This document shows, piece after piece, positions 706-28,624 of a DNA stretch of 64,000 nt; positions within the stretch are counted from its first letter, which is position 1, and each line of letters starts with the position of its first letter. The position numbers and the translations under genes are program-made. Below the pieces are notes generated by a model. That model was given only the letters and a program-made list of their open reading frames with translations. It did not search any database and was not told the DNA's origin. The DNA comes from Candidatus Puniceispirillum sp. Its GTDB lineage: Bacteria > Pseudomonadota > Alphaproteobacteria > Caedimonadales > UBA1908. The DNA lies in assembly GCA_013822015.1 (NCBI GenBank), contig PNJU01000002.1, positions 192,500 to 256,499 on the forward strand, read 5' to 3'.

Positions 706-1407
706 ATGATCTTTCCCTTCACCATCATTGATTTGACCCACACACTTTCCTCAAACATTCCCACCTGGGATGGGGGATGCGGCTTTGGGCAAGAATGCTT
801 GCATGATGAGGCCACTACCCATGGAAAGGACGAGACCTTTCGTATCATGGGGCTACACATGGAGGCAGGTATCGGAACCCATATGGACGCGCCTACCCAT
901 CTTTACAAAGACGGCACACCCATCCACGCGCTTCCCCTACAGGATCTGTGCATGCCGTGTGTGGTCATTGATGTCGCCCATAAAGCCCATGCAAACTATA
1001 CAATCACCGCCGACGATATCCTCGCCTTTGAAGAAACCTACGAAAAAATTGAAAAGGGCATGTGCGTTGTGTTTCGCACAGGCTGGGCGCGCCACTGGGA
1101 AGATAGACAAGCATATCACAATAATCACGTCTTTCCTTGTGTGGGTGAGGACGTCGCAAGGCTGTTACTTGCACGCGGTGTGCGAGCTTTAGGTATTGAT
1201 ACCCTCTCACCCGACCGACCCGAAAATGACTTTATTGTGCACAAATTGTTTTTAGGACAAGGGAAGGTGCTGCTTGAAAATGTGGCAAACCTTTCAAGCA
1301 TGCCTGCCACTGGGGCCTTTGTACTTGCGCTTCCCCTGAAAATTCACGACGGGACAGAGGCGCCCTTGCGGCTTGTGGGACTTGTGATGCGAGACGCTGT
1401 TGCATAA
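706..1407 (+). CDS. Cyclase-family protein (kynurenine formamidase-like)
   Basis: 233-aa ORF with the metal-binding motif GIGTHMDAPTHLY (HxDxPxH) typical of the putative cyclase/arylformamidase family. It ends at a strong hairpin terminator. Confidence 0.7.
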   Translation: MIFPFTIIDLTHTLSSNIPTWDGGCGFGQECLHDEATTHGKDETFRIMGLHMEAGIGTHMDAPTHLYKDGTPIHALPLQDLCMPCVVIDVAHKAHANYTITADDILAFEETYEKIEKGMCVVFRTGWARHWEDRQAYHNNHVFPCVGEDVARLLLARGVRALGIDTLSPDRPENDFIVHKLFLGQGKVLLENVANLSSMPATGAFVLALPLKIHDGTEAPLRLVGLVMRDAVA

Positions 1408-5046: not shown

Positions 5047-5131
<85 letters not shown>

Positions 5132-5235: not shown

Positions 5236-5730
5236 ATGGATTTTAACCCAGCGCTTTGCCCGCCTTCCCCGTTCCATGCAACAGCTATCTATATGGATGG
5301 GTGTGGTATTCTTCTTCTAGGGCCCCCGGGCAGTGGAAAATCAGATTTGGCCTTGCGCTTGATCATGGAACGGGGGGCGCGCCTTGTTGCGGATGATCTG
5401 TGTGAAATTCTTCACAAACCAGATGGTCTGTGGGTACAGTGCCTCAAGGAAGGCGAGCGCCTTTTAGAAGTGCGCGGCCTGGGCATAGCCGCTATGGGTG
5501 AGGGACAATGGATCAAGTGTGCGCCCCTTGCCTTTGCGCTTCACCTTACCCGCGACAAAGACATTCCCCGCGAACCTGTCAGGCAAACCCTTCAAGGCAC
5601 CCACCTGCCCTTGTATGCATGCGACCCCTTTTGCGCCAGTGCGGCCGCTAAGATCAGCTTGCTTGTGCGCCACCATAAAGAAGAGGTGCGCCTGCTTTGG
5701 CCCGACACCCCCCTGCCCCATGCGGCCTGA
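5236..5730 (+). CDS. hprK: HPr kinase/phosphorylase C-terminal-domain protein (short alphaproteobacterial type)
   Basis: P-loop GILLLGPPGSGKSDLALRLI followed by GARLVADD. The ATG at 5236 is preceded by GAGGGG. The track start at 5176 lies only 45 nt from the tRNA and is probably too far upstream. Confidence 0.7.
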   Translation: MDFNPALCPPSPFHATAIYMDGCGILLLGPPGSGKSDLALRLIMERGARLVADDLCEILHKPDGLWVQCLKEGERLLEVRGLGIAAMGEGQWIKCAPLAFALHLTRDKDIPREPVRQTLQGTHLPLYACDPFCASAAAKISLLVRHHKEEVRLLWPDTPLPHAA

Positions 5731-5763
5731 CAGAGGCGCCCAACTACATGGAAAGATGTCATC

Positions 5764-6159
5764 ATGAACGCAAAATCACTTCTCGTGTCCTGTCTGGCAG
5801 TGCTTGCCTGCTGGCCCACCCATGCAGCAGGGGACGAGCTGACCCAAGGCCCCTTTGAATCGCCCTTCCCGCCCGCCCAAGCCTCTTTGGGTAGTTGTGA
5901 GCACGCCCTTGATGAGGAAGCGCTGGCACGCATCATGGGCGATTACCAAGCACAGCTGCGAACCCTCATGGGGACACTCTTTCCCCAAACGCAACCGCAC
6001 GCGCTCTCCTCTCAAGACGACACTGCACCCTCCTCCCCTGGCCCAAACGCAGCCCAGGGCAGTGATCTAACCCCCGCCTCAATATCTCAGGAGGCCTCAT
6101 TGACGGCCCCAACGGCATCCAGTGCAGGCTTCTTTCTGACCCAGGACGAGACGGCATAA
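5764..6159 (+). CDS. Small secreted hypothetical protein (131 aa)
   Basis: N-terminal signal-like sequence MNAKSLLVSCLAVLACWPTHAAGDE, with a P/S/T/Q-rich C-terminal half. No family recognised. Confidence 0.5.
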   Translation: MNAKSLLVSCLAVLACWPTHAAGDELTQGPFESPFPPAQASLGSCEHALDEEALARIMGDYQAQLRTLMGTLFPQTQPHALSSQDDTAPSSPGPNAAQGSDLTPASISQEASLTAPTASSAGFFLTQDETA

Positions 6160-6249
6160 GCACCCCCATGCGGCGCCCAGGGGCAACCCTTGGGCCGCCA
6201 TGCAGAGGAACGTTTTTTTCTGAAAAAGAAGTAATACTGACTTATTTTC

Positions 6250-6278
6250 TTGAATGTTTGCAAACATGTGTTTATTTT
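6250..6278 (+). promoter_or_regulatory. Candidate sigma70-type promoter with an embedded 14-nt perfect palindrome, upstream of the RNase III-like gene
   Basis: TTGAAT (6250-6255), a 17-nt spacer, then TATTTT (6273-6278). The spacer contains ATGTTTGCAAACAT (6254-6267), which is its own reverse complement. Confidence 0.25.
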
Positions 6279-6307
6279 GTACTGTTTTTTAACAGACAAG
6301 AAGGAAT

Positions 6308-8077
6308 ATGATGTCAATAAAACACCTCGGTCGACTGTTTCTCTCAGCAATGGTCGCAACCGCCCTGTACGCACAACCAAGCTGTGCGAGCAAACCCAAT
6401 AAAGAAAAAATCCCAGTCATCTGTGACCTTTTCTCCCAAGAAAATGATATCGATTATCCGGGGATTCAGGCGCACCTGCACTACACCTTCAAGGATCCCA
6501 TGCTCCTTAAAACCGCCCTTCGTCCCATGTTGCCCACGCCCCTACAGGGCGATAAAAACGCATATGACCTTCTAGAATTTCGTGGGGACGCGGTGCTTAA
6601 GCTGATCACGATGGACAGGCTCTTCGAGATCCTGCCCGGGCATATACGAGGACAGATGTCCACCTTGTGTGGAGACTTGGTGATGAATCACTGGTTGACA
6701 GAATACGCTCTGTGGAATTTGGATCTTGAGCGTTACTTACCTTGCCCCAGTGGATCTTACAAAGTCTGCGATGTCATGGAGGCACTCGTAGGCGCCGTTT
6801 ATGTGGATGGGGGCCCAAACGGACTTAGCCACGCCCGGCGCTTTGTCACCCTATTCTTGGACGATGAAACGCTCCATAACAAAATGCAAGAGATGTCTAA
6901 GACCTCTACACGCTTGGTCTTTACCCCCCAAATGACCCAGGATCAAAAGGATGCTCTGGCAAAGATCTGCAGGCCTGAGCGCCTAGGTAGTACCAACGCC
7001 AAGTCGCTGCTTAACGAGCTTCTTTTGGATCTCTTTGATGACAGGCCTGAATACACCACCCATTTTGAAAAGGGCGAGGATGGACATGTGCTTTTTCGCA
7101 CCCACGTCATTGGCGCCCAGATTGGCAAGACGAATCATGGCCACGGGCGCACCTGTCAAGAGTCTGAGGAAAATGCCGCCCGCCAGGCCATCAACACTCT
7201 GGCGCAAGCCCCCCTTTATTCCACCGGAAGCCCCAGTGGATCACCCAACAGCTTTCGTGTGCAACTGAAAGAAATGCTGGACTTTCTTGATCTTAAACTC
7301 ACAACGCGCAGCACAATGGAGGGAAAACCCCACGAACCCACCATTGGCTTTGAGTATCTTCTGGGTGAGAAACCCATCGGTGTTGGCCAGGGGTCCTCAA
7401 AAGCCCAGGCTGCAGAAATGGCGGCCGGGCAAGCCTGTGACGCCATCATCCAGTTAGAAGCGCAAAAACGCGCATCGCGCCACTCCTTAAGAGACTCTAT
7501 CTGGACAACACTCCAAGCCAACCGCGCAGCCCTGCAGGCCGCCACCCTCGCCAAACAAGCAGCTGCAGCCGCAGCAAGAAAAGCCGCCAAGACACCTGCT
7601 GTTTACTCGGCAAGTTCTGGAAGTGTTTTAGCGCCAGCGAGCGTGTCTTCTGCTACCGCCTCACCGGCTGCGTCCATCATCGGCACCGCTGTAGCAGCTT
7701 CAGTTGCTCCAGTAACCCCACCAGCGCCAACCCTGGTCACCTCTGTGCCAACAACGCCACCTGCTGCATCCGTGACCAACACCACGGTGGTTTCGACATC
7801 GGCGGCTTCAGTCCCCGCCCCCACAAAAACAGTGACATCCCAGGCAAATAAAGCCAAAGGAAATGGAAAACTGCCCAAACAAGGGCACATCCAAAAACCA
7901 AAGCCACCTGTGGCCACGGGCGCCCCGTCGGTTGCTGTGTCGCCACACAAGGGCAAAACCCCACAGTATGTTGGACCAAAGGCTGGTCCCAGAGCTCACA
8001 TAAAGATGCAACCTCAAACCAATGGAGCCCAAAAACCAGGATCTACCTCGTCCCATGCGCCAGTAAAAGCGGCCTAA
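6308..8077 (+). CDS. Signal-peptide-bearing RNase III-like protein with two dsRNA-binding domains and a low-complexity tail
   Basis: 589 aa. The leader is MMSIKHLGRLFLSAMVATALYAQPSCAS. The RNase III signature is LLEFRGDAVL...CDVMEALVGAVYVDGG, with the catalytic E/D positions retained. dsRBD 1 is AKSLLNELL...PEY...GHVLFRTHV...GHGRTCQESEENAARQAINTL. dsRBD 2 is GKPHEPTIGFEYLLGEKPIGVGQGSSKAQAAEMAAGQA. The C-terminal ~190 aa are A/P/S/T/V-rich and end lysine-rich. Confidence 0.8.
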   Translation: MMSIKHLGRLFLSAMVATALYAQPSCASKPNKEKIPVICDLFSQENDIDYPGIQAHLHYTFKDPMLLKTALRPMLPTPLQGDKNAYDLLEFRGDAVLKLITMDRLFEILPGHIRGQMSTLCGDLVMNHWLTEYALWNLDLERYLPCPSGSYKVCDVMEALVGAVYVDGGPNGLSHARRFVTLFLDDETLHNKMQEMSKTSTRLVFTPQMTQDQKDALAKICRPERLGSTNAKSLLNELLLDLFDDRPEYTTHFEKGEDGHVLFRTHVIGAQIGKTNHGHGRTCQESEENAARQAINTLAQAPLYSTGSPSGSPNSFRVQLKEMLDFLDLKLTTRSTMEGKPHEPTIGFEYLLGEKPIGVGQGSSKAQAAEMAAGQACDAIIQLEAQKRASRHSLRDSIWTTLQANRAALQAATLAKQAAAAAARKAAKTPAVYSASSGSVLAPASVSSATASPAASIIGTAVAASVAPVTPPAPTLVTSVPTTPPAASVTNTTVVSTSAASVPAPTKTVTSQANKAKGNGKLPKQGHIQKPKPPVATGAPSVAVSPHKGKTPQYVGPKAGPRAHIKMQPQTNGAQKPGSTSSHAPVKAA

Positions 8078-8096
8078 AACCCTTGGCCTAGACTTT

Positions 8097-8127
8097 TGGG
8101 TTAGCGCTGTGGAGGGGCGCTAACCCA
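8097..8127 (+). terminator. Hairpin downstream of the RNase III-like gene (no U-tract)
   Basis: TGGGTTAGCGC tgtggaggg GCGCTAACCCA: an 11-bp perfect stem 20 nt after the stop codon. Confidence 0.35.
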
Positions 8128-8336
8128 GCGGGCCTGAGAAAGTGCACCTCAATCCCCGCCCTCCCGCACTCAAATCCCGTCATGGCACGCACACAATAAT
8201 CGGCACCACTTAGCCCAAGAGAGCCAAAGGATGAAAAAATGGGCTGGTAATATAAGCCACTCACTCTTTCCCTATATCCATAATTAACAACTTTCTCTTG
8301 ACTCTTGTGATCTCTCCACTTTTTTTTCATTTTTTA

Positions 8337-8365
8337 TTGACAAAATCCAAAACAAAACACAAATA
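8337..8365 (+). promoter_or_regulatory. Candidate promoter of family A gene 1
   Basis: Perfect TTGACA (8337-8342), a 17-nt spacer, then CAAATA (8360-8365), with a T8 tract just upstream. The ATG at 8395 is preceded by GAGAGAGAAG. Confidence 0.3.
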
Positions 8366-8394
8366 CAACTTGTATTTAAAAGAGAGAGAAGTTT

Positions 8395-9303
8395 ATGACA
8401 TATATTAAAGCCCTTACACTTTGCACACTACTGGCACATATTCCCCTTTACGCATCAAGCGGAGTCCTTGACGTTGTTGAGCCCACATCCTCAAAACCAA
8501 CGCGGTCCATGCCTGCAGTATTATCAACGCTGCCCGAGACCATGCAGGCCTTGCACACCATCAAATCCATGTGCAAACCTGAGGAGCGTCTTCAGTTTAC
8601 GGCCTCCTCTAAATGGTACTCGCCCACTGCAGCAAATGTTCACACTGTTCTTTCCCACGATTTTTCCCCCTCACATCTGGGCGCGGCCCTGCGCTTTTGC
8701 GCCTCCATTACAACTGAGAACGCGCCCTTTCTAAAGGCAGTTCTTAAAGGCGCGACGTGGCAAATGTCCTTGGATCTTTTACCAGCATCTTTGGGGCTTT
8801 CCCATGAGGTTCTGCAGGGAGCAGCAGGCATTGAAGATCTGAGTGCACGCCTCACATTCCTCAAGCAATCACCACGCCCAGACACCTGGGTCCTTGGCAT
8901 GTTGGGTTCTGATCCCCTCATTGATAGCGCCGTCTTGGAGCACCACGTGAGAGAGCGCATCCTTATGAATCCCATCGGCATGAGCGCATTTTTTGTCAAA
9001 AGCCTCAAGCATGGCGATACGCTCACGCGCATGCGCCTGACAAGTTTTCTTCTCCACACGGATCCTTTGAGCGTGGGCGCGCATTTAAGTGATAAAAAAG
9101 CCCGTTTTGAAAAAATTGGGTTTCGCCAGAACTCACGCCTTGCAAGGACCCTCGACGCAAAGAAAGTGCTACCGCCCTTTGGGTTTCTGCTTGACCGCAG
9201 CCCAGACGGCAATGTCACACGCATCACCACGCGTTATCCAGACTTCTGGGCTCCTTTGCCGGCATGGACCCACTCACCGTCCCAGCACCGCCCTGTAGAA
9301 TAA
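8395..9303 (+). CDS. Secreted hypothetical protein, paralog family A member 1 (302 aa)
   Basis: Leader MTYIKALTLCTLLAHIPLYASSG. It shares a core with three other ORFs in the window: WY.PT...F.P.HLGAALR...ENAPFLK.VL...LLPA.LGLS...RL.FL...PRPDTW..GMLG.DPL.D...F.V..LK.G...TRMR.T.FL...PD...P.P.WT..PS. Confidence 0.75.
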   Translation: MTYIKALTLCTLLAHIPLYASSGVLDVVEPTSSKPTRSMPAVLSTLPETMQALHTIKSMCKPEERLQFTASSKWYSPTAANVHTVLSHDFSPSHLGAALRFCASITTENAPFLKAVLKGATWQMSLDLLPASLGLSHEVLQGAAGIEDLSARLTFLKQSPRPDTWVLGMLGSDPLIDSAVLEHHVRERILMNPIGMSAFFVKSLKHGDTLTRMRLTSFLLHTDPLSVGAHLSDKKARFEKIGFRQNSRLARTLDAKKVLPPFGFLLDRSPDGNVTRITTRYPDFWAPLPAWTHSPSQHRPVE

Positions 9304-9435
9304 TCATACGTCGCCTCGCTTTTCTTTGCCAAAGGCGGGGCGCACGACCATTTGCCCATACAAAGGGATGCCATTGACCTTCCTGCATAACCCTTTAGAA
9401 TGAAAAACATACGCGGCCTTACATGAGGTGACGGC

Positions 9436-10200
9436 ATGTTCTATGTTTGGGTTTTTCTGACCTTTGTTGCCCTTACGCGTGAAGACGCCTTCGCGTCATC
9501 CCATAATGACGTCTCCCAAACATTTGAGGAAACCTCTCACCCTTCCTTCAAAAGAGCCCTTGATTGGTACCCACCAAGCGAGGATGAGATGAAAACCGTC
9601 ACGTCCTGGGGATTTGAGCCCGCACATATGGGGGCAGCCCTACGCTACCGTGCTTTTATCAAGTCCGAAGATACACCCGTCCTTCAAAAGGTACTTGCTA
9701 GCGCCCCTTGGGAGGAGGCTTTTTCCATGATTGCACGCGCTGCCGGGGCGCACGCGACGGACCTTGCGCTTGCAGCTACCCTCCCCCTTCCAGAGCGCCA
9801 AGAATTCCTCAGGGGCAGCCCAAGAGAAGACACCTGGATTTACGCACATATTGGCCTTGATCCCGATATCGACATGCATGTGATGACCTACCATATGCGG
9901 CGCCTGCTGGGTGAAAACCGCCCCCAAACAGAGGAGACTCTCCTCAACATGGTCTGCGCGCGTGACGAGCTCACCAAAAAACGCGTCGCAACATTTTTGT
10001 GGAACGCGCTTTACGATGAGCACTTCGGATACTGTTCTCGTTACGCGGCCCTGGGAATTATTGACGCCTCCCCCCTCATGAGACAGGTTCAGCATATGCG
10101 AGGGCTTGTCTTGCACGGCCTTGTGCATGAAGGAGCTGACGGCACCTCCAAAGGTCGCCTGCGCGTCGTTGCACCCTGGCTTGCCCCCGCCCGCCTTTAA
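9436..10200 (+). CDS. Secreted hypothetical protein, divergent family A member 2 (254 aa)
   Basis: Hydrophobic N-terminus MFYVWVFLTFVALTREDAFASS, with no basic n-region. It keeps the N-terminal family A motifs (WYPPSEDEM..GFEPAHMGAALRYRAF...DTPVLQKVL...SPREDTWIY), but the C-terminal third diverges. RBS is GAGGTGA. Confidence 0.65.
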   Translation: MFYVWVFLTFVALTREDAFASSHNDVSQTFEETSHPSFKRALDWYPPSEDEMKTVTSWGFEPAHMGAALRYRAFIKSEDTPVLQKVLASAPWEEAFSMIARAAGAHATDLALAATLPLPERQEFLRGSPREDTWIYAHIGLDPDIDMHVMTYHMRRLLGENRPQTEETLLNMVCARDELTKKRVATFLWNALYDEHFGYCSRYAALGIIDASPLMRQVQHMRGLVLHGLVHEGADGTSKGRLRVVAPWLAPARL

Positions 10201-10244
10201 AGGTAATACCCGTAATTCCTTGGCAGTTTATAGAAATTTGTTTT

Positions 10245-10273
10245 TTGACAAATGAGGAAGAAGGGGTTAGTGA
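10245..10273 (+). promoter_or_regulatory. Candidate promoter of family A gene 3
   Basis: Perfect TTGACA (10245-10250), a 17-nt spacer, then TAGTGA (10268-10273). The ORF-track start at 10245 is the TTG of this hexamer. Confidence 0.3.
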
Positions 10274-10310
10274 TGAAGAGTCGGTGCGGTTTTTCCAGGA
10301 GTCACACACC

Positions 10311-11282
10311 ATGCGTACACTCGCCTCTCTCACCCTTGCGATCCTTTTTTCTTGTAGTTCCCTTTACGCGTCCAACGCACACAAGCGCAAAATAGATGAG
10401 CTCATAGGCTCAGACTCTGACTCAGACTCAGACTCAGACTCAGAGACATTTATGCCTATCAGTGCACACGTGGCCCTTGGCCAGGAGGAAGGAGGCGAGC
10501 CATATATCCCCGAAGACCTTGTGCCCCATCTCAAGACCTTTGTATCCCCGTGCGATCCCGAAAAAGAAATGGATCAGTTTATTGAACCCCTCGCGTGGTA
10601 CCGCCCGACACCCGAGGAGCTGACTTCCATCACGACCATGGGATTCGAGCCTCGTCACCTGGGCGCGGCCCTGCGCATGCGCGCGCACCTAACGCTTGAG
10701 AACACGCCCCTGCTTAAAGGAGTGCTCAAAGACAGTGATATCCCACAATCCCAGCGTTTGCTGCCCGCCGCCATGGGCCTTTCGAACGGGCAACTCAGAG
10801 CGGCGGCAAAGATTGAGAACATCGAAGAACGCCTCAATTTTCTCATCAATGCACAAAGGGAGGACGCGTGGATCTTTGGCATGCTAGGCGCCGACCCAAT
10901 CCTTGACAACCTCGCCATCAACGCCAACATGAGGGCACGTGTTCTTATAAACCCAGACAAGATGAGCTCGTTTTTCATCCGCAACCTCAAAGAAGGGACC
11001 AACATCACACGGATGCGTTTCACAGGCTTCCTTAGCGAGCTGACCGGCTTAATTACCGACAAGCTCAGCCGCGCAAACCGACTGGGATTTGAGGACAACT
11101 CCCACGTCATGGAAACCGTCAAAAAGAAAGGCCTTCCCCGCCCCTTTAGCGCAATCTTCTGGGAAATGCGCCTCAATGATGGCAAGGTCATGCCACGTAT
11201 CACAATCAAAAAGCCCGATTACCTCGACCCCATGCCCCTGTGGACCTATAAGCCGTCCACTTATCTCGACCCTATCCCATGA
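10311..11282 (+). CDS. Secreted hypothetical protein, family A member 3, with an (SD)n tract
   Basis: The ATG at 10311 is preceded by AGGAG. Leader MRTLASLTLAILFSCSSLYASNA, then an SDSDSDSDSDSE tract, then the full family A core (WYRPTPEELTSITTMGFEPRHLGAALRMRAHLTLENTPLLKGVL...GMLGADPILD...PDYLDPMPLWTYKPSTYL). Confidence 0.75.
   Translation: MRTLASLTLAILFSCSSLYASNAHKRKIDELIGSDSDSDSDSDSETFMPISAHVALGQEEGGEPYIPEDLVPHLKTFVSPCDPEKEMDQFIEPLAWYRPTPEELTSITTMGFEPRHLGAALRMRAHLTLENTPLLKGVLKDSDIPQSQRLLPAAMGLSNGQLRAAAKIENIEERLNFLINAQREDAWIFGMLGADPILDNLAINANMRARVLINPDKMSSFFIRNLKEGTNITRMRFTGFLSELTGLITDKLSRANRLGFEDNSHVMETVKKKGLPRPFSAIFWEMRLNDGKVMPRITIKKPDYLDPMPLWTYKPSTYLDPIP
10409..10446 (+). repeat. In-frame hexanucleotide microsatellite (TCAGAC/GACTCA)n encoding (Ser-Asp)n
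   Basis: ctcagactctgactcagactcagactcagactcagag: about 5-6 tandem 6-nt units inside family A gene 3. Confidence 0.85.
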
Positions 11283-11386
11283 GGTAGCGCGCCAGCGCTC
11301 TCTCACGCAGAAAAAATGGTGCTTAAAGACTCCCACAAGAAACGCGATCGTCATTAATTATTTATTGTATTGTTTTTTTATTATAC

Positions 11387-11415
11387 TTGACAATAAAACT
11401 ATGATCTGATATTTC
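11387..11415 (+). promoter_or_regulatory. Candidate promoter in an AT-rich intergenic region
   Basis: Perfect TTGACA (11387-11392), a 17-nt spacer, then TATTTC (11410-11415), within the visibly AT-rich stretch 11350-11420. Confidence 0.3.
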
Positions 11416-11482
11416 AAGCATCGGACAGTAAAAGTGCCGTTCTTATTCACTTGTCCCGGCACAAGAAAGGAGAAGTAACATC

Positions 11483-12664
11483 TTGCGTAAACTATTAGCC
11501 AGCGCTGGCATTTTTATTCAATTCACATCATTTGCATTCGCATCGGACCCCACCCTACAAGACCTGCACTTGGTCATTGGCTCGACCCGAGGCGGATATT
11601 TGTCCCAACCTCTGGCAAAAAGAGTTTACCAGGAGGCAAACGCAGACCTATCCCACGCGGGTACATTCTCGGGAAAAGCCATCACCGTTGACATCGCTCC
11701 CTGCGAAAACCCCAAACTTGCAAAACGTCACTGGCAAGCGGACGCGGAAACCTTTGAGTTTCCGGGCACCATCCAAAATGTTTATCTTGAAAGGCTGTTT
11801 ACCTTTGACCAAAAATCGGGTGATCACACAAAAGACCATATCTCGAACGTCCTTCAAAATCTCACAAAGCACATGATTCCTGCTCAGAACAAGGTTGAGA
11901 TTGAGTGGCACCCTTGCGTCGGCATGGCGTATCTGCCCCCCAAGGCGAGTAAAGAGGAAAGGGAGCACATCCTTAACACCCAAAGGCGACAAAATCCTTT
12001 TCAGGGCGTCATGGATATTAACGAAGTTCTCACCGCCACCAAACTTGCTGTTTTCGACAGTGTGAACTTAGACGGCGTACCCAACAAGTCCTACATTGAT
12101 GCGGCCAATGCTTTTAAAAAACCCCTCACCCAGCTCATCAACTTTTATGTGGGCTCGAAGCCTAGCCTCGTGCGCACGCAGCTGATTCAACGTCTGAGAT
12201 TTGAAGCCAATGTTTTGACGCTGTTAAGCCAAGATCCGAACAAAAGATCTGTCCCCCTTCTGGGCTCCATTACCGCTGATTTCGGCAAATTAGATGACAC
12301 AACATTTTCAGTAGTCGCATCAGATCCAGAAGACGACGGTAAAATTTTGGTACGTGACCGCCAGGGTTATTCTTATCTTTATGACACGCAAGAAGAGGTC
12401 GCAAAAGCCGTTTCCAGAGGGGGTACTGTGCGCGGCGTCCTCCATGGTTATATGTCCTTTATGACTGGCTCTTGCCTCAATTTCTTGTGGAGCGATATGG
12501 CTGTTGAGATTCAAAAAGGGCTTGTCCAAGAAAAGCTTGCCTCACTCGGTTTTCGTGCCATTGAGATCAAGCGTAAAAAGAGCCCACACAACCGCCGTCA
12601 AAATGTTCATATCATCAGCACGGTTTATGACCCAGGCAACGCTGTAGAAGAACAAAAAGCCTAA
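11483..12664 (+). CDS. Secreted hypothetical protein (393 aa, TTG start)
   Basis: TTG start preceded by AAGGAGAAG. Leader MRKLLASAGIFIQFTSFAFASDP. No recognisable domain. Confidence 0.6.
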   Translation: MRKLLASAGIFIQFTSFAFASDPTLQDLHLVIGSTRGGYLSQPLAKRVYQEANADLSHAGTFSGKAITVDIAPCENPKLAKRHWQADAETFEFPGTIQNVYLERLFTFDQKSGDHTKDHISNVLQNLTKHMIPAQNKVEIEWHPCVGMAYLPPKASKEEREHILNTQRRQNPFQGVMDINEVLTATKLAVFDSVNLDGVPNKSYIDAANAFKKPLTQLINFYVGSKPSLVRTQLIQRLRFEANVLTLLSQDPNKRSVPLLGSITADFGKLDDTTFSVVASDPEDDGKILVRDRQGYSYLYDTQEEVAKAVSRGGTVRGVLHGYMSFMTGSCLNFLWSDMAVEIQKGLVQEKLASLGFRAIEIKRKKSPHNRRQNVHIISTVYDPGNAVEEQKA

Positions 12665-12773
12665 AGCACCCCTCCCATGACCGACGTCTGAATCCTTTTT
12701 CAGATGTCGGTCACTGTTCTCATTATGCCGCAACTGACCTTTTCCAGAAGCCAACATTACTGTCAAAAAAAAC

Positions 12774-12801
12774 TTGAAAAGAAGAAATATCTTCCTATAT
12801 A
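12774..12801 (+). promoter_or_regulatory. Candidate promoter of the UIM-like/CAP gene
   Basis: TTGAAA (12774-12779), a 16-nt spacer, then TATATA (12796-12801), with an A8 tract immediately upstream. Confidence 0.35.
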
Positions 12802-12880
12802 CATAAGAGCATTGGGAGATTTTATGACACTCTCCTCAATATTTCTTCTGTCCACTCCCTCAAACAATAGGACGACCCAC

Positions 12881-13969
12881 ATGAAAAATCTGAAGAAAAT
12901 CCTCCTCGTTTCACTTCTAACAAGCGGCGCCTTTGTAGCTAGCGCGACTCATTATTCAGACGAGGAAATGAACGCCATGGCAGCTGCTGCCAGAATCAGC
13001 CTCCATGACCTACGCGCACTTGGTCAGCAGATGCCCTTGGATGATTTCTACGCCCCCGTTGCGTACATGTTCGCAGCTCAAGAGGGGCGCGGCGCATCGG
13101 ACCAAGCCACAAACGACTATCTCTTTGCCCGTCAGCTGGCACAAGGCAACACAAGCACTCCAAGAATGTCTGAACCCGACGCTGATTTTCTCCTTGCCCT
13201 GCGCCTTTGCGAAGAGGGGCCTCAGGCGCCAAGCACACGCTCTGCGGCCACACCGTCCCCTCAGCCTCACGCCCCGCAAGACACAGAAGCTGATTTAGAG
13301 CTTGCTCTGCGCCTCTACGAAGAAGAAAGTCAAGCTCGGTTTGTGCCCACAACCATATCCCCTACCCTCCTTGGGACCACGCATGCGCCGCACGTGAGCG
13401 TTCAGGACGAGGACTACCTCCTTGCCATGAGGCTCTTTGAGGAAGAAAGGCAAGCTGCGTCCACGGTGCGCGTCATATCTACGCAAGCACCGCAAACCGC
13501 TGCATCTTCTCACGTCGCTGCCCCGAGCCAGGAAGATGAGGAACGCTCCTTTTTTGATCTGACCAACGCACGTCGCCAGGAGCACGGCCTTGGGCTTCTG
13601 ACATGGAACCCGCTGCTTGCCCAGATCGCCCGGGAGCACTCCCAAAAAATGGCCGATACCTTCACCTTTGCCCATGACATTGAAGGCAAGAGCTTTGGTG
13701 ATCGCATTGAAGGGCGCTACAACGGCTCCATGGCCGGGGAAAACTTATATATGTCTACAGCTGCCTACAAAGTGAGCGAGCGCGGCATCACCCCTTCTTC
13801 TGTGAAGTATTCATCCATGGCAGAGGCCGTCGAGGGGCTCATGAACTCACCAGGACACAGGGAAAATATTTTGAAGCCAGAGTTTAATGAGCTTGGCGTA
13901 GGAATTATCGTCACCGCCCTTGGTGGGCAGAAGTACTGGACGCAAGTGTTTGGCAGGAAGCAGGACTAA
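12881..13969 (+). CDS. Secreted protein with tandem UIM-like acidic/LALRL repeats and a C-terminal CAP/SCP/PR-1 (YkwD-like) domain
   Basis: The ATG at 12881 is preceded by AGGA. Leader MKNLKKILLVSLLTSGAFVASA. Repeats are DEEMNAMAAAARISLHD, NDYLFARQLAQG, PDADFLLALRLCEEG, TEADLELALRLYEEE and QDEDYLLAMRLFEEE. C-terminal CAP motifs are FFDLTNARRQEHGL...AREHSQKMA...GENLY...LMNSPGHRENIL...FNELGVGI...YWTQVFG. Confidence 0.75.
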   Translation: MKNLKKILLVSLLTSGAFVASATHYSDEEMNAMAAAARISLHDLRALGQQMPLDDFYAPVAYMFAAQEGRGASDQATNDYLFARQLAQGNTSTPRMSEPDADFLLALRLCEEGPQAPSTRSAATPSPQPHAPQDTEADLELALRLYEEESQARFVPTTISPTLLGTTHAPHVSVQDEDYLLAMRLFEEERQAASTVRVISTQAPQTAASSHVAAPSQEDEERSFFDLTNARRQEHGLGLLTWNPLLAQIAREHSQKMADTFTFAHDIEGKSFGDRIEGRYNGSMAGENLYMSTAAYKVSERGITPSSVKYSSMAEAVEGLMNSPGHRENILKPEFNELGVGIIVTALGGQKYWTQVFGRKQD

Positions 13970-14002
13970 ACCCATCTTATTCCTTACTTGAGAGCACCAC
14001 GC

Positions 14003-14032
14003 CAGATGCCGTTTCACCAGAAACGGCATCTG
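14003..14032 (+). terminator. Hairpin downstream of the UIM-like/CAP gene (no U-tract)
   Basis: CAGATGCCGTTTC acca GAAACGGCATCTG: a 13-bp perfect stem with a 4-nt loop, 34 nt after the stop. Confidence 0.4.
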
Positions 14033-14286
14033 TGCTGCCCCCCCCTCTTTGATGTGGCCCCTGCATCTTGCGTGAGATGACGTTGTGGCATATCTGCGCA
14101 GTGAAGCGCCATCAGGGAAAATTGGCAGAAGCGACACTACCAGCTTAGACTGCGACCACACGGAGGCAGACGCTTAAACCAACCAAGGCTCACATAGAAG
14201 CCTTTGGAACACAAGATAGGCCGGAGCCAGCACCGACTTCCCCTTTGACCTGATTCATTAACCTTAAAATCTCCCACATATTCGCT

Positions 14287-14315
14287 TTGACAAGAAGCAT
14301 AAAAGTTTCCATGCT
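14287..14315 (+). promoter_or_regulatory. Candidate promoter of family A gene 4
   Basis: Perfect TTGACA (14287-14292), a 17-nt spacer, then CATGCT (a weak -10). The ORF-track start at 14287 is the TTG of this hexamer. Confidence 0.25.
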
Positions 14316-14346
14316 TTCCAGTGTGTCAACACAGGAGAAGAGCACT

Positions 14347-15300
14347 ATGAAATCTATTTTTTATGCGACATCCTTAGTCCTTAGCTTTCTCACGATCGCC
14401 CCACATATCCAGGCATCAAATAGTCCTTTGGATGCCCTTGATGTAGAGGAAGGGACGAAAACCGTGCGCCCCGTCGGACTTGACGTTGCTCTTAATGTCG
14501 GATACGGCAACGAAATAAACATACCAAGCACACTCGTCCAAAGTCTGAATGACTTTGTCACGTCATGCGCCGGTAAAAGTGAGATGAATCAGTTCCACAG
14601 CCCCTTCATGTGGTATCGTCCCACGCCAGAAGAACTCACGCGCATTTCCGACCTTGGGTTCGCGTCATGTCACCTTGGTGCGGCCCTACGCATGCGCGCG
14701 CATCTCTCTTGCGAGAACGCGCCTCTTATCCAAAGAGTGTTAAGAGACAGCAGCTACGCAAAAGCACAGTTTCTGCTCCCTGCCGCCATGGGGCTTTCCC
14801 ACACACAGCTTGAAGAGGCCGCCAACATCGAAGACGTTCAGGAGCGTCTCGATTTCTTGATACAAGCCCCACGCCCAGATACATGGGTTTATGGTATGCT
14901 GGGGGCGGATCCCCTTCTTGATCACCTGGCCATCGAGACGAGTATCAGGACGCGCATTGCAAATAACCCAGACCTGATAAGTTCGTTTTTCGTTCGCAAC
15001 TTGAAGGAAGGCACAGATCTCACGCGCCAGCGCATCACGGGGTTTCTTTTGCAAGTCACCGGGAATGTGTCCGAGGGAAAAACACGCGCAGAACACCTTG
15101 GCTACAGCAAAGTGTCAAACGTTGTACACGCCCTTCAAAAGAAAAAACTCAAACGCCCCTTTGGCCTCTTCCGCGAAGCGTTTCCTTTCACTGATGGCAG
15201 CGCAGGCACGGATCTTAAAAATCACACGCCCGATTATCTTGATATAATGCCCCAATGGACATACACTCCGTCGACCTATCTCAAGCCTCGGCGCTCATAA
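14347..15300 (+). CDS. Secreted hypothetical protein, family A member 4
   Basis: The ATG at 14347 is preceded by AGGAGAAG. Leader MKSIFYATSLVLSFLTIAPHIQASNS. Full family A core, closest to member 3 (WYRPTPEELTRISDLGFASCHLGAALRMRAHLSCENAPLIQRVL...GMLGADPLLD...PDYLDIMPQWTYTPSTYL). Confidence 0.75.
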   Translation: MKSIFYATSLVLSFLTIAPHIQASNSPLDALDVEEGTKTVRPVGLDVALNVGYGNEINIPSTLVQSLNDFVTSCAGKSEMNQFHSPFMWYRPTPEELTRISDLGFASCHLGAALRMRAHLSCENAPLIQRVLRDSSYAKAQFLLPAAMGLSHTQLEEAANIEDVQERLDFLIQAPRPDTWVYGMLGADPLLDHLAIETSIRTRIANNPDLISSFFVRNLKEGTDLTRQRITGFLLQVTGNVSEGKTRAEHLGYSKVSNVVHALQKKKLKRPFGLFREAFPFTDGSAGTDLKNHTPDYLDIMPQWTYTPSTYLKPRRS

Positions 15301-15303
15301 AAA

Positions 15304-15330
15304 AGCCTCGCTGCCACAAGCAGCGAGGCT
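15304..15330 (-). terminator. Hairpin terminator between convergent family A gene 4 and metQ
   Basis: AGCCTCGCTG ccacaag CAGCGAGGCT: a 10-bp stem. The A-run on the + strand at 15298-15304 gives a U-tract for the minus-strand (metQ) transcript. Confidence 0.45.
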
Positions 15331-15384: not shown

Positions 15385-16218
15385 CTAAGATTGAGAGGGC
15401 GCGCAAGGCGCCTTCTCGTTTGCCTTGACGGTTTGCCACGCTGGGATGACCGCGCCGTGAAATGTTTTCTTCAAAAAGGTCGCCGTCTCTTGGGTGTGGT
15501 AAAGGGAAACGAGCTTCACGATCTCAGGGCGCTTTTCATCGCCTTTTCGCACCACAAGTAAATTGGCATAGGGAGAGTCTTGGTCTTCACGCGCCAGAGC
15601 ACTCTTGGGATCAATACCAGACACAAGGACCCAGTCCGTATTAATGGCCGCCAGATCCACATCATCGAGCGCCCTTGGCACGTGGGGTGCGTCCACTTCC
15701 ACAAGCTTCACATGCTTTGGATTTTGCGCAATATCAAGGACGCTGGGGCTCATGGGCGCGTCTTTTTTAAGGGTTAAGATGCCGGCCTTTTCAAGAAGAC
15801 GCAGCGCCCGCCCGCCATTACTGACGTCACTTGGGATGGCAATCTTGGCGCCGTACGGCACATCCTCAATCTTTTTAAGGGTCTTGCTGTACAGCCCCAG
15901 TGGCAAAATGATGGTCTTGCCGACAGACACAAGATCCATGCCGCGCGCTTGGTTTTGCTCCGTCAAATAGGGCTCGTGCTGGTAGGAATTCACGTCCAGC
16001 TCTTTTTCAAAAAGCGCCGTGTTGGGCAGCACAAAATCATCAAACTCAATCACATCAAGGGTGAGGCCTTGCTTAGCCGTGCGCTCTTTAAGATGGGCCA
16101 TGATCTGTGCATGGGGGCCGGCTGTGACGCCTACCTTAAGGGCGCCGGCTAAAGCGCCCTGCCCTAATCCAAAAGACACAAGGGCGACGGCGCCCACATA
16201 CTTGAGCTTCTTCAACAT
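15385..16218 (-). CDS. metQ: Methionine ABC transporter substrate-binding lipoprotein (NlpA/MetQ family)
   Basis: 277 aa. Leader plus LKVGVTAGPHAQIMAHLKE...LDVIEFDDFVLPNTAL...LDVNSYQHEPYL, typical of MetQ. It is the last gene of metN-metI-metQ. Confidence 0.9.
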   Translation of the reverse strand: MLKKLKYVGAVALVSFGLGQGALAGALKVGVTAGPHAQIMAHLKERTAKQGLTLDVIEFDDFVLPNTALFEKELDVNSYQHEPYLTEQNQARGMDLVSVGKTIILPLGLYSKTLKKIEDVPYGAKIAIPSDVSNGGRALRLLEKAGILTLKKDAPMSPSVLDIAQNPKHVKLVEVDAPHVPRALDDVDLAAINTDWVLVSGIDPKSALAREDQDSPYANLLVVRKGDEKRPEIVKLVSLYHTQETATFLKKTFHGAVIPAWQTVKANEKAPCAPSQS

Positions 16219-26002: not shown

Positions 26003-26539
26003 TTAGTGCCGGTAAAGGATAAACTGAAAAAGCATAGGCTTGCCAACATCTACGTTGTTACGCACCGTGTACATAAATCCGTACCGTGAGGGTTTTTCAA
26101 AAGCTGTGCTGCGCACAACCTCCACATTTTCAAGTGCAAAGGGGTCCGCCGCCTCATAGGGCGCTATCAGGCTCGCAAAGGTCCGGCGCAAAACATCACT
26201 TTGGTTGCGATCAATGATGTACCAAGCGCACCCCACCTTATCAACGTAGTCCTGTTGCGCAGCAAAAAATGAGGCACCCGTGTGTTGATGACCTCTTTGC
26301 AAGAATGAGTAGGTATCATCGATCACTGGTGGGTGAGCGGCAGCTTTTTGGGCGTTCTTGAGACGATCAGCGCGCATAGAGATGCAAGTCTCCTCAAACC
26401 CATTGAAAAGCTTATCATATATTTCTTGACTGAAAACGCCTTGGGGCTTAGAAGGTAACCTCACCTCTTGAACGTCTACACTGGCAAGCAAACTCCCAGA
26501 CCCCAAAAACACAAAGACCAAACGCTTCAATAGATTCAT
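26003..26539 (-). CDS. Secreted hypothetical protein, tandem paralog family B member 1
   Basis: Leader MNLLKRLVFVFLGSGSLLAS. C-terminal core WYIIDRNQSDVLRRTF...VEVVRSTAFEKPSRYGFMYTVRNNVDVGKPMLFQFILY, shared with the next three ORFs. Confidence 0.7.
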   Translation of the reverse strand: MNLLKRLVFVFLGSGSLLASVDVQEVRLPSKPQGVFSQEIYDKLFNGFEETCISMRADRLKNAQKAAAHPPVIDDTYSFLQRGHQHTGASFFAAQQDYVDKVGCAWYIIDRNQSDVLRRTFASLIAPYEAADPFALENVEVVRSTAFEKPSRYGFMYTVRNNVDVGKPMLFQFILYRH

Positions 26540-26630
26540 TTCACTACACACTTTCATGCCAATTTGGCATGAACTAAGCATGGGCAGCGCGCTCAGTCAA
26601 GACGGTCTGTGAACCGCGGCGCTGTAAGGA

Positions 26631-27293
26631 TCACATGGTGAAGGGGTAAAGCATAACCTGAAAAAGCGCGCTTTTGCCAGTATCGTGATTGTTTCTGATG
26701 AGATAGCGCACACCGTAATAGGGGTAATCATGAACAGCTGTGCTGCGCACAACATCCACGCCTTCAATGACAAAAGCTGGCACGCCCTCACGCGGACTGA
26801 GCAAATTTTGATAAATGCGCTGCAACACGTTACTTTGGCTGCGTTCAATGACGTACCACAGCTCTCCCTTATCATCTTTGTAGGTTATGTCCTTTGCGTA
26901 GAAAGAGCCATTGCAAGGGGTTGCTTCATCGGGACGGGCTAGAAAGGAGGGAAGTAGACCAGAAACACCCGCGCCACTTAAGTGATCAAGACCAACGCCA
27001 TTGTCTGCCTGACCAGAGCGTGCAAAAAACGAAAGATCTTCTTGAAAGATGGGCGCACGATTGGCAAAAACACACACTTCTTCCGGGGCACGGAACACAT
27101 CGGTATGAATGTACTCACCTCCACAAAAAAGTGTGTCGTAAATTTTCTTCACAAAACCAGGAACGGTGAGGGCGCGCCGCATGACATCGGTTTCTTCCCC
27201 GTGTGTTGCTTCCTCAGGGGTGGTTGCCTGCACGCAGGTTGACACCAAAAGCCCACATATTGCATAGCTCAAATGTCTCATGGGGACACTCAC
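26631..27293 (-). CDS. Secreted hypothetical protein, family B member 2
   Basis: Leader MSVPMRHLSYAICGLLVSTCVQA. Core PSFLARPDE...WYVIERSQSNVLQRIY...VDVVRSTAVHDYPYYGVRYLIRNNHDTGKSALFQVMLYPF. Confidence 0.72.
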   Translation of the reverse strand: MSVPMRHLSYAICGLLVSTCVQATTPEEATHGEETDVMRRALTVPGFVKKIYDTLFCGGEYIHTDVFRAPEEVCVFANRAPIFQEDLSFFARSGQADNGVGLDHLSGAGVSGLLPSFLARPDEATPCNGSFYAKDITYKDDKGELWYVIERSQSNVLQRIYQNLLSPREGVPAFVIEGVDVVRSTAVHDYPYYGVRYLIRNNHDTGKSALFQVMLYPFTM

Positions 27294-27459
27294 ATTATGT
27301 CAGTACGACATGTCATTGGACCATGATAGAGATGAAGGCGTCAAGGGGGCGCCAAAAGAGTGTCGGGTTGCGTGCCAAGGCTAGGCCATGGAAACGCGGC
27401 CCGCCTTGGTGAGTAAACACCTCATGGGGAGCCGCGTGACCAACGGCATTAGGACTTCA

Positions 27460-28014: not shown

Positions 28015-28059
28015 TTTTTGACAAAAGACACGTCTGTTTACTGTGAATCTTTATTGATG

Positions 28060-28587: not shown

Positions 28588-28624
28588 TTTTATTTTCTCG
28601 TTCTTATTTTTAATGATGAACCTA

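Follow-up and report, generated by a model that had tools for sequence, protein, structure and literature searches.

Eight co-directional genes separate an hprK-like gene from metQ beside a tRNA gene, and the question they raise is whether they form an acquired island, an ordinary envelope locus, or a set of proteins directed at a host. We examined the block within the window (the whole 64,000-nucleotide stretch of DNA analyzed here) and drew synteny evidence from the relatives designated L001, L002, L003, L006, L012, and L013.

A Cluster of Eight Genes for Exported Proteins

The eight plus-strand ORFs that the initial annotation placed between 5764 and 15300 were all recovered in position, confirming a real cluster of genes for exported proteins, listed here with the gene on its left flank:

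5236–5730, + strand: short HprK-like kinase of the C-terminal domain type, the block's left flank (Pfam Hpr_kinase_C, 56 bits)
5764–6159, + strand: o131, a 131-aa exported ORF with leader MNAKSLLVSCLAVLACWPTHA↓A
6308–8077, + strand: RNase III-like exported protein, 589 aa (PF00636, 42 bits; PF00035, 31 bits)
8395–9303, + strand: A1, 302 aa (L001 ortholog 86% identical, dN/dS 0.30)
9436–10200, + strand: A2, 254 aa, the most divergent A-family paralog (ortholog 77% identical, dN/dS 0.25)
10311–11282, + strand: A3, 323 aa from ATG (ortholog 79% identical, dN/dS 0.16)
11483–12664, + strand: o393, a genus-restricted exported ORFan of 393 aa (dN/dS 0.20)
12881–13969, + strand: CAP-domain exported protein, 362 aa from ATG (PF00188, 65 bits; dN/dS 0.20)
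14347–15300, + strand: A4, 317 aa from ATG, the fastest-diverging A member (53% identity to L001 A4, dS 1.4)

Ribosome-binding sites, ortholog N termini, and leader position indicate that A3, the CAP gene, and A4 likely start at internal ATGs (10311, 12881, and 14347) and that the longest-ORF starts are probably wrong. Successive spacers measure 33, 148, 317, 132, 110, 200, 216, and 377 nt.

Hydrophobic leaders had been proposed for all eight proteins, and each N terminus does follow a basic, hydrophobic, small-x-small layout. The home-made heuristic used for this is overly permissive, scoring 38 of the 54 ORFs in the window as positive, and is below SignalP grade. Cleavage-like ends include LYA↓S, AFA↓S, ASA↓T, IQA↓S, and THA↓A, and the layout is kept in orthologs. 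No outer-membrane export route was identified within the window. Sec alone delivers to the periplasm only, a point against reading the block as host-delivered. The block was also said to hold no core function; Pfam and NCBIfam matches were indeed limited to RNase III plus dsRBD and to CAP, with six of the eight genes matching nothing in either collection and no envelope-biogenesis family matched by any block gene.

These ORFs are real genes, because their dN/dS values (0.16–0.30) are combined with a dS comparable to that of the flanks, a pattern repeated in the closer pair L001/L006. Most flanking genes have dN/dS of 0.02–0.09, and both dN/dS and dN are higher in the block (Mann–Whitney P = 0.004 and 0.001), whose genes evolve 3–10 times faster than the flanks; no block gene has dN/dS above 1. 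Selection on the block was thereby shown to be purifying but relaxed.

An Old Core and a Lineage-Specific Segment

The order A1–A2–A3–o393–CAP–A4 between hprK and metQ is shared by three or more congeneric lineages (L001/L006, L012). An A-family gene directly follows hprK in L001, L006, and L013, the last a more distant lineage in which it opens an A-family array. Comparison with the flanks, which had been suggested as a check, found the block's GC, GC3, and codon usage indistinguishable from theirs. Because of this synteny and composition, we regard the six-gene core as old and native, and its recent acquisition as an island is not supported. The block is not a single unit: The congeners share the core in syntenic order, and o131 and the RNase III-like gene are the only lineage-specific members, in a segment absent from relatives. 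Alignment of the window with L001 (blastn and MAFFT) delimits that segment:

5491–8319, no strand: lineage-specific segment of 2.8 kb, comprising the 3′ part of hprK, o131, the RNase III-like gene, and the spacer that precedes A1

The corresponding stretch of L001 is just 335 bp long. The window's hprK is hyper-divergent (58% identity to the L001 ortholog, dS 2.6), with its neighbors tig, clpP, and clpX at 99%; the C-terminal part of HprK shares 53% identity with L001 and with L013 alike, and these two are 66% identical to each other.

Family and repeat searches found no integrase, transposase, or flanking direct repeat, the sole long repeat being a paralog motif, and the tRNA-Leu gene (5047–5131, minus strand) directs its 3′ end away from the block. 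With its ordinary composition, the block is probably not a mobile island, and the earlier denial of a classical tRNA-integrated island holds.

The window derives from a MAG, and its flanks place it close to CAED1 (GCA_020161545.1), to which ClpX, ClpP, and Tig are ~99% identical and the flank DNA ~93–95% identical. CAED1 belongs to GTDB order Caedimonadales, family UBA1908, and has a genome of 1.88 Mb with 52.8% GC (PMC9723799). Caedimonadaceae described so far are protist endosymbionts (PMC11909080). Conservation in free-living relatives, which the initial annotation would have held against an accessory block, is not what we found, since the relatives fall in Caedimonadales, whose described members are those endosymbionts. 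The genus itself has been sampled through bioreactor and environmental metagenomes, and no host has ever been observed.

Promoter-Like Boxes and Hairpins of the Block

On the plus strand of the block spacers, TTGAC occurs 7 times vs. 1.43 ± 1.19 in shuffles (P about 6 × 10−4); a generic sigma-70/terminator scan showed no enrichment. The candidate signals are as follows:

6165–6219, + strand: hairpin and T7 run following o131, resembling an intrinsic terminator (dG −27.7 kcal/mol, z −4.5, tail ACGTTTTTTT)
8093–8131, + strand: hairpin after the RNase III-like gene (dG −24.0, z −4.2)
8337–8342, + strand: TTGACA box 58 nt upstream of the A1 ATG (same box at −57 in L001)
9309–9346, + strand: hairpin after A1, conserved in L001 (dG −21.4, z −4.1)
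9374–9401, + strand: promoter-like TTGACC-16-TAGAAT 62 nt upstream of A2, identical in L001
10245–10250, + strand: TTGACA box 66 nt upstream of the A3 ATG, at the mechanical TTG start of a 345-aa ORF
11387–11392, + strand: TTGACA box 96 nt upstream of o393 (−95 in L001)
12676–12716, + strand: hairpin of roughly 17 bp after o393 (dG −25.9, z −7.9)
12774–12801, + strand: promoter-like TTGAAA-16-TATATA upstream of the CAP gene, read directly in the sequence, conserved in L001
14001–14035, + strand: hairpin after the CAP gene (dG −25.5, z −8.0)
14287–14292, + strand: TTGACA box 60 nt upstream of the A4 ATG, at the mechanical TTG start of a 337-aa ORF
15304–15330, no strand: 11-bp hairpin between convergent A4 and metQ (dG −22 to −25, z −7.5)

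The TTG starts assigned mechanically to A3 (10245) and A4 (14287) are thus the TTGACA boxes themselves. Upstream of A4, the L001 box also lies at −60, though the neighboring DNA is unalignable. Strong hairpins follow six of the eight stop codons (z −4 to −8). In L001 the stem after o393 has another sequence yet still pairs at the same place, pointing to compensatory change, and the A4/metQ hairpin has a similar stem with a different loop there; an A6 run on the plus-strand 5′ side of the latter would supply the T-run for the minus-strand metQ transcript. The recurrence of −35-like boxes at the same distances in L001, together with the kept o393 pairing, favors the proposal of separate cassettes: Every gene looks like a transcription unit in itself, a conserved −35-like box precedes most of them, and a hairpin follows the stop in six of eight cases.

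Repeat, CAP, and RNase III-Like Proteins

A1–A4 are paralogous (30–50% identity). The A family belongs, as a single-repeat member, to an alpha-helical repeat superfamily restricted to the clade. Proteins of this superfamily carry 1 to 11 tandem units of ~60 aa, share a cap module, and invariably have leaders. The repeat matched no Pfam family and no PDB fold, and the fold gave no functional clue. A word search returned 7 proteins among 5.8 billion and a profile search 15 matches among 1.84 billion representatives; across 185,579 genomes the family is carried by one species representative, with one JGI contig in addition. The AlphaFold model of A4 (MAG protein C0514_02330) is all-alpha with pLDDT 80 and had no PDB structural match. 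Individual members vary: A2 is broken into two ORFs in L012, A4 is interrupted by a stop codon in L006, and A3 has an (SD)6 run at 10409–10444, a hypervariable patch around residues 280–300 with a mosaic third allele (P0004), and a lipobox-like LFSC kept as L-[FI]-[SA]-C in its orthologs.

Searching 5.8 billion proteins with o393 returned just itself and a CAED1-lineage ortholog (85%); it had no Pfam, NCBIfam, or PDB match, and AlphaFold gave no usable model (pLDDT 39). The mature part of o131 is abundant in Ala, Ser, Leu, Pro, Thr, and Gln; annotated as hypothetical (C0514_02290), it stands in a protein cluster of size 1 and matched no family in Pfam or NCBIfam.

The CAP protein resembles YkwD-like CAP/SCP extracellular proteins in its signal peptide and C-terminal CAP domain (PDB 4ifa, E = 4.5 × 10−13); CAP/YkwD proteins are common in free-living bacteria too. 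Unlike those proteins, its N-terminal half bears three acidic amphipathic 13-aa motifs (DADFLLALRLCEE, EADLELALRLYEE, and DEDYLLAMRLFEE; 0.04 copies in shuffles), conserved among orthologs and separated by variable Pro/Ala/Thr linkers. The label "UIM-like" was not confirmed, as the motifs resemble UIM without a strict fit.

Like class 1 RNase III (Rnc; Aquifex aeolicus, PDB 1yyk), the RNase III-like protein has one RNase III domain followed by a dsRBD. Aquifex RNase III is its top PDB match (E = 3.5 × 10−12), and the catalytic E/D...D/E acidic positions are kept. Unlike Rnc, it begins with a 50-aa N-terminal extension that contains an export leader, probably has a second dsRBD (dsrm, E = 0.11), and ends in a disordered basic tail of 190 aa in which Ala, Pro, Thr, Ser, and Val are abundant (19 basic and 0 acidic residues); its TIGR02191 score of 102 bits is under the 166-bit equivalog cut-off. 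It is also duplicated in the genome: The sole homolog among 8,000 scored candidates is C0514_08235, a paralog in the same MAG (49% identity) that has an export leader as well.

Interpretation of the Locus

From these sequence features we infer a chromosomal, lineage-restricted locus, confined to one genus of uncultured alphaproteobacteria (Caedimonadales, UBA1908), whose Sec-exported proteins are probably host-interaction factors. In its position downstream of hprK the core would predate the diversification of the genus, and it would have arisen partly by tandem duplication of a single-repeat A-type member; the segment with the small exported ORF and the leader-bearing RNase III/dsRBD gene would be a derived layer. 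The leaders may direct the proteins via Sec to the periplasm or cell surface, from which at least some might be released to the host cell. There the helical-repeat A proteins and the CAP protein, through its acidic helical motifs, could bind host proteins, and the RNase III-like enzyme could encounter double-stranded RNA, its only plausible substrate.

A considerably weaker candidate is that the block encodes ordinary proteins of the periplasm or envelope with roles in the physiology of the bacterium itself, for example in structure or nutrient scavenging, with the RNase III-like enzyme a periplasmic nuclease and no block protein acting on host molecules. The reach of Sec leaders, to the periplasm only, fits this, as do the conserved core of native composition, the resemblance of the CAP domain to YkwD and weakly to the divisome lipoprotein DalA, and the A3 lipobox-like motif, which suggests membrane anchoring. 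A core envelope function is nevertheless unexpected, because the genes are limited to one small clade, evolve 3–10 times faster than the flanks, and include members broken in some strains (A4 in L006, A2 in L012); none matched an envelope-biogenesis family, and to our knowledge dsRNA, which RNase III requires, is not a periplasmic substrate. It is unlikely that the A paralogs are instead a variable surface-antigen family, exposed and diversified by recombination to evade recognition rather than acting on intracellular targets. Their tandem arrangement with a promoter each, the localized A3 patch and its mosaic allele, the extreme divergence of A4 with a pseudogene in one strain, and the patchy dS between strains, which points to recombination, speak for such a family; the modeled A fold, by contrast, is soluble and all-alpha with no beta-barrel or anchor except the possible A3 lipobox, no archive of silent cassettes is present, dN/dS stays below 0.3 gene-wide, and we know of no adaptive immunity in protist hosts.

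Least credible of all is recent acquisition of the whole 9.5 kb as a genomic island, by a mobile element or an unknown mechanism. The block shares with tRNA-linked genomic and pathogenicity islands its co-directional, accessory-looking, non-core genes beside a tRNA gene and a strain-specific sub-segment (5491–8319) that abuts the hyper-divergent hprK. Unlike them, it lacks atypical GC, GC3, or codon usage, integrase, transposase, flanking direct repeats, and insertion at the tRNA 3′ end, which faces away. Three congeneric lineages have six of its eight genes in synteny, the core is conserved genus-wide, hprK precedes the A array even in the more distant L013, and the RNase III-like gene's only relative among the 8,000 scored candidates is the same-genome paralog; for the core, this explanation is largely refuted.

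The host-interaction reading has a precedent. Holospora has a complete Sec system, its other secretion pathways having decayed, and its signal-peptide proteins are stored in the periplasm and then released into the host nucleus (PMC5911502; PMC9866348). The infection proteins of Holospora obtusa include 89-kDa, 63-kDa (PRP1), 39-, 15-, and 5.4-kDa species, of which PRP1 binds nucleic acid (PMC5911502; PMC9866348). The block proteins resemble these periplasmic proteins in being lineage-specific, in bearing classical signal peptides, and in coming from a related protist-symbiont clade. There is no sequence relationship, Holospora proteins being absent from the matches of every protein search; release was shown there, whereas here it is inferred for a genus with no known infectious form or host.

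Repeat-protein effector families of intracellular bacteria (ankyrin, Sel1/TPR) form tandem paralog arrays. The A family is likewise alpha-helical, repeat-based, duplicated, and found only in a host-associated clade; unlike those effectors, its proteins bear Sec leaders, not type IV or type VI secretion signals. A distant A-like gene in L008 adjoins an ankyrin-repeat gene, with a patatin gene 2.5 kb away and a TLC ATP/ADP translocase gene at a distance of 7 kb.

Gene content and predicted leaders

Eight + strand ORFs fill positions 5764-15300, flanked by a short hprK-like gene and a convergent metQ:

5236-5730, short hprK-like gene, left flank of the block
15385-16218, - strand, metQ, convergent, right flank of the block

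The genes, annotated in the MAG within C0514_02285 to C0514_02330, are o131 (a 131-aa ORF), an RNase III-like gene, A1, A2, A3, o393, a CAP gene, and A4. Likely starts of A3, the CAP gene, and A4 are internal ATGs (10311, 12881, and 14347), which have a ribosome-binding site upstream and agree with ortholog N-termini; the TTG codons taken mechanically as starts at 10245 (A3) and 14287 (A4) were rejected, being TTGACA boxes. By a heuristic that over-calls, read with judgement and not equivalent to SignalP, all eight proteins and their orthologs carry a putative leader with a basic n-region, a hydrophobic h-region, and a small-x-small motif, the exception within this layout being A2, which lacks the basic n-region. 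The eight + strand, apparently leader-bearing genes described in the initial annotation are thus recovered.

Pfam and NCBIfam assign families to two of the eight proteins, RNase III plus dsRBD in the 589-aa protein and CAP in the seventh, and match none of the other six. PADLOC matched no defence family in any of the eight, and PHROGs hit only two phage families, one of CAP type named "sporulation protein" and one, unannotated, that covers the RNase III domain. An Rfam search of the window found two tRNAs and nothing else.

Relatives and conserved gene order

Flanking housekeeping proteins are 95-99.5% identical to those of CAED1 (GCA_020161545.1), and the flank DNA is ~93-95% identical. CAED1, a 1.88-Mb genome of 52.8% GC from a phosphorus-removal bioreactor, is placed by GTDB in Alphaproteobacteria, Caedimonadales, family UBA1908 (PMC9723799). 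NCBI labels the window's MAG, in which a protein identical to A4 is annotated, "Candidatus Puniceispirillum sp.", after a genus of SAR116; this label disagrees with the GTDB placement and is probably a misassignment. Every member of the Caedimonadaceae described so far lives in symbiosis with a ciliate, amoeba, or dinoflagellate (PMC11909080), and at locus L008 a distant A-like gene directly adjoins an ankyrin-repeat gene, with a patatin gene 2.5 kb and a TLC ATP/ADP translocase gene 7 kb away; these observations make an intracellular lifestyle likely for this genus.

The gene order lon, cyclase, clpX, clpP, tig, hprK, A1, A2, A3, o393, CAP, A4, metQ, metI, metN is shared by CAED1 (locus L001, with identical copies L002 and L003) and by a strain 97% identical to it (L006). 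A third lineage with 82% DNA identity to the window (L012) keeps A1-A2-A3-o393-CAP, and in a more distant one (L013) the end of hprK is followed directly by three A-family genes, all three with leaders. L001, L006, L012, and L013 all lack o131 and the RNase III-like gene, and the 2.8-kb segment that holds them (5491-8319) stands where CAED1 has 335 bp. Presence/absence polymorphism of the block among relatives is confined to this segment. The block is therefore not a single unit: the o131/RNase III-like segment is lineage-specific, and the core from A1 to A4 is syntenic in L001, L006, and L012.

Elsewhere in the neighborhood, CAED1 has a 1.56-kb insert between cyclase and clpX (L001 2022-3586) encoding a 179-aa leader-bearing ORFan; the window (1388-1406) lacks it, a second presence/absence difference in an exported ORFan. 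The hprK gene of the window is itself an outlier, 58% identical to its CAED1 ortholog with a dS of 2.6, against 95-99% for neighboring housekeeping genes. Over the part compared, L001 and L013 share 66% identity, and each shares 53% with the window, so the window copy is more diverged from that of CAED1 than is the hprK of the distant lineage L013. These identities and the saturated dS suggest either that the gene came in from a divergent relative or that its evolution sped up locally.

Composition and mobility

Block genes have GC of 0.48-0.60, GC3 of 0.51-0.65, and codon distances of 0.07-0.11, compared with GC3 of 0.50-0.68 and codon distances of 0.05-0.14 in flanking and housekeeping genes. 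The comparison of GC and codon usage with the flanks, proposed earlier as a check, gave no sign of an island: all eight genes lie inside the range of the window's housekeeping genes. No integrase, transposase, or other mobility gene was found among the eight proteins with Pfam, NCBIfam, or PHROGs, and no direct repeats flank the block, the sole long direct repeat being a coding motif common to the paralogs. The tRNA-Leu is encoded on the - strand, and its 3' end (5047) is directed away from the block. The earlier impression that this is not a classical tRNA-integrated island is borne out by the native composition, the lack of mobility genes and flanking repeats, and the tRNA orientation. On the same evidence the core is native, not a recent island, and acquisition as an island is rejected for it; that reading survives for the 2.8-kb segment only, as a recombination or duplication event.

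Evolutionary rates

In the six core genes, dN/dS for the window-L001 pair ranges from 0.16 to 0.30, compared with 0.02-0.09 in seven of eight flanking genes (the cyclase, at 0.22, is the exception). The difference between core and flank is significant (Mann-Whitney P = 0.004), whereas dS does not differ significantly. The core genes are therefore real, constrained, and fast-evolving. Gene-wide positive selection was not seen in core genes for this pair, in agreement with the L001/L006 pair, in which patchy dS (0.008-0.24) indicates recombination. Divergence is extreme in A4, which is 53% identical between the window and L001 and has an N-terminal third that is not alignable; A3 has a local hypervariable patch, its third allele being mosaic. 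A4 has a premature stop in L006 (6460-7380), and L012 (336-1099) has two ORFs of 98 and 157 aa in place of an intact A2; these copies are either pseudogenes or assembly errors.

The A3 gene also contains a perfect (CTCAGA)6 run (10409-10444) encoding (Ser-Asp)6 just past the leader, and its length is not the same across three alleles.

Predicted transcription signals

The spacers contain seven copies of TTGAC on their + strand, where 1.4 would be expected (P about 6e-4). Boxes precede A1 by 58 nt, A2 by 62, A3 by 66, o393 by 96, and A4 by 60, and stand at 57, 62, 66, 95, and 60 nt in L001, where the A4 box is kept although the neighboring DNA is not alignable. A conserved TTGAAA-16-TATATA site, a predicted promoter, precedes the CAP gene. 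Hairpins lie no more than 40 nt past six of the eight stop codons (z of -4 to -8); that of o131 has a T7 tail, and the o393 stem has another sequence in L001 with its pairing retained. A generic sigma-70/terminator scan showed no enrichment.

Spacers measure 110-377 nt at seven of eight junctions. These long spacers, together with the conserved -35-like boxes and the hairpins past six stops, argue against a single operon, and the boxes and hairpins favor the predicted structure of independent cassettes proposed in the initial annotation. An 80-aa ORF on the - strand (8088-8330) lies inside the spacer between the RNase III-like gene and A1, where a locus-tag gap (C0514_02300) suggests an NCBI annotation; the ORF overlaps a hairpin, is without support, and is probably spurious.

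The A proteins and their multi-repeat relatives

A1, A2, A3, and A4 are paralogs with 30-50% identity. The family is very rare: A word search found seven proteins among 5.8 billion, a profile search gave 15 matches among 1.84 billion representatives, and a genome-contig scan, with a seven-sequence alignment as query, placed it in a single species genome out of 185,579. It is also present on one JGI contig, which was already known and was all that a metagenome scan returned.

The distant profile matches are leader-bearing proteins of about 900-1300 aa, with up to 11 tandem ~60-aa units followed by the same "cap" module as in the A proteins; two of these multi-repeat relatives, C0514_03440 and C0514_08290, are encoded in the window's own genome. 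Because of this shared architecture, the A proteins are single-repeat members of a clade-specific helical-repeat superfamily. No Pfam family matched the A family, and searches of PDB gave nothing significant by sequence. An AlphaFold model (pLDDT 80, pTM 0.76) predicts an all-alpha protein with a small C-terminal beta-hairpin, for which Foldseek found no match in PDB (nothing below E 1.4).

The giant leader-bearing proteins of 1320 and 995 aa (L010 825-4787 and L009 7315-11705) have up to 11 A-family repeats, and their genes adjoin gatC/gatCAB in these two lineages. Three proteins, P0010, P0014, and P0015 (the last from the window's MAG), have a common ~450-aa C-terminal domain; this domain of the giant relatives had no Pfam match and nothing significant in a PDB sequence search.

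The o393, CAP, and RNase III-like proteins

The o393 protein is found in the genus only. It has no significant PDB sequence match, and AlphaFold gave no usable model from a two-sequence alignment (pLDDT 39).

The CAP domain (PF00188, 65 bits against a gathering cut-off of 21.1; PDB 4ifa, E 4.5e-13) occupies the C-terminal third of its protein. The protein also carries a 13-aa acidic amphipathic motif in three conserved copies, with variable linkers between them; these copies had earlier been called UIM-like. They resemble the UIM, whose strict consensus was taken as an acidic run, a hydrophobic residue, and x-x-Ala-x-x-x-Ser-x-x-acidic, but the window protein has no match to this pattern, with Cys, Tyr, or Phe in place of Ser; one motif copy of the L001 ortholog (DADFLLALRISEE) fits it. 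No UIM profile matched in Pfam at E up to 10, a setting at which HMMER's filters drop most weak matches, and a PDB sequence search of the N-terminal half gave nothing significant and no UIM protein among its matches. Since the window copies lack the Ser and neither a UIM profile nor a UIM protein was matched, UIM membership is not supported.

The RNase III domain (PF00636) scores 42.2 bits against a gathering cut-off of 27, and alignment with Aquifex RNase III shows the catalytic E..D and D..E positions kept. The protein has one dsRBD, a weak second dsRBD, and a 190-aa tail with 19 basic and no acidic residues. Of the 8,000 candidates scored, only one was a relative: a paralog with 49% identity and a leader of the same kind, encoded on a different contig of this MAG. 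Assignment as the housekeeping Rnc equivalog was rejected at 102.1 bits against the TIGR02191 cut-off of 166.25, and the RNase III paralog P0026 is also under this cut-off (108 bits).

Probable host interaction

We interpret the locus as probably encoding lineage-specific Sec-exported proteins that act as host-interaction factors. The nearest documented parallel is Holospora, in which Sec is retained, other secretion systems have decayed, and signal-peptide periplasmic proteins, including the DNA-binding PRP1, are released into the host nucleus (PMC5911502, PMC9866348). The main rival is that the block encodes the bacterium's own periplasmic proteins without a host target. The narrow distribution and fast evolution of the genes, their apparently pseudogenised members, and the presence of a dsRNA-specific enzyme among the proteins all speak against this rival.

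A more specific form of the host-interaction reading strikes us as unlikely: that the RNase III/dsRBD protein is exported, released into a protist host, and cuts dsRNA there, and that a new alpha-helical repeat effector fold, specific to the clade, is shared by the A family and its multi-repeat relatives. The substrate would be host or symbiont-derived dsRNA, and cutting might, for example, blunt a host RNA-interference response. A literature search found no secreted bacterial RNase III effector; if real, this would be the first to our knowledge.

Little is understood of how bacteria of the Holospora/Caedimonas group interact with their hosts, and candidate secreted factors are few (PMC11909080). 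The locus offers a compact set of testable candidates: a new repeat-protein family that lacks known relatives and has a confidently predicted fold, a CAP protein whose short helical motifs are conserved, and a predicted exported RNase III. The locus also illustrates the evolution of loci of this kind. It appears to combine a stable native frame and predicted individual promoters with change by tandem duplication, local hyper-divergence, pseudogenisation, and small insertions.

Further clusters of putatively exported ORFans

The window has at least two more clusters of this type, made up of paralogous ORFans with leaders, so such clusters are probably a genome-wide trait of the lineage, not a single island:

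26003-28632, - strand, second cluster, four tandem small ORFs of 192, 220, 184, and 190 aa
41517-48331, - strand, third cluster, leader-bearing ORFans of 728, 432, 399, 117, and 114 aa

A candidate ORFan at 33532-36693 (+ strand, 1053 aa) was set aside. It has no Pfam match at E <= 1e-5 and matches NCBIfam PRK06567, a putative bifunctional glutamate synthase beta subunit/2-polyprenylphenol hydroxylase, at E 9e-184, yet under the curated cut-off; we treat it as a PRK06567-type oxidoreductase. Another ORF, of 504 aa (59275-60789, + strand), has an export-type leader and matches no family in Pfam or NCBIfam.

All four members of the second cluster have an export-type leader and three are paralogs with 38-45% identity, and neither Pfam nor NCBIfam gave a match for the member of 220 aa. 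In the third cluster, the 728- and 432-aa proteins are 55% identical with nearly identical leaders, and the 399- and 117-aa proteins are 66% identical. The 399-aa gene has an unusually low GC3 of 0.36 and a codon-usage distance of 0.20, the maximum in the window.
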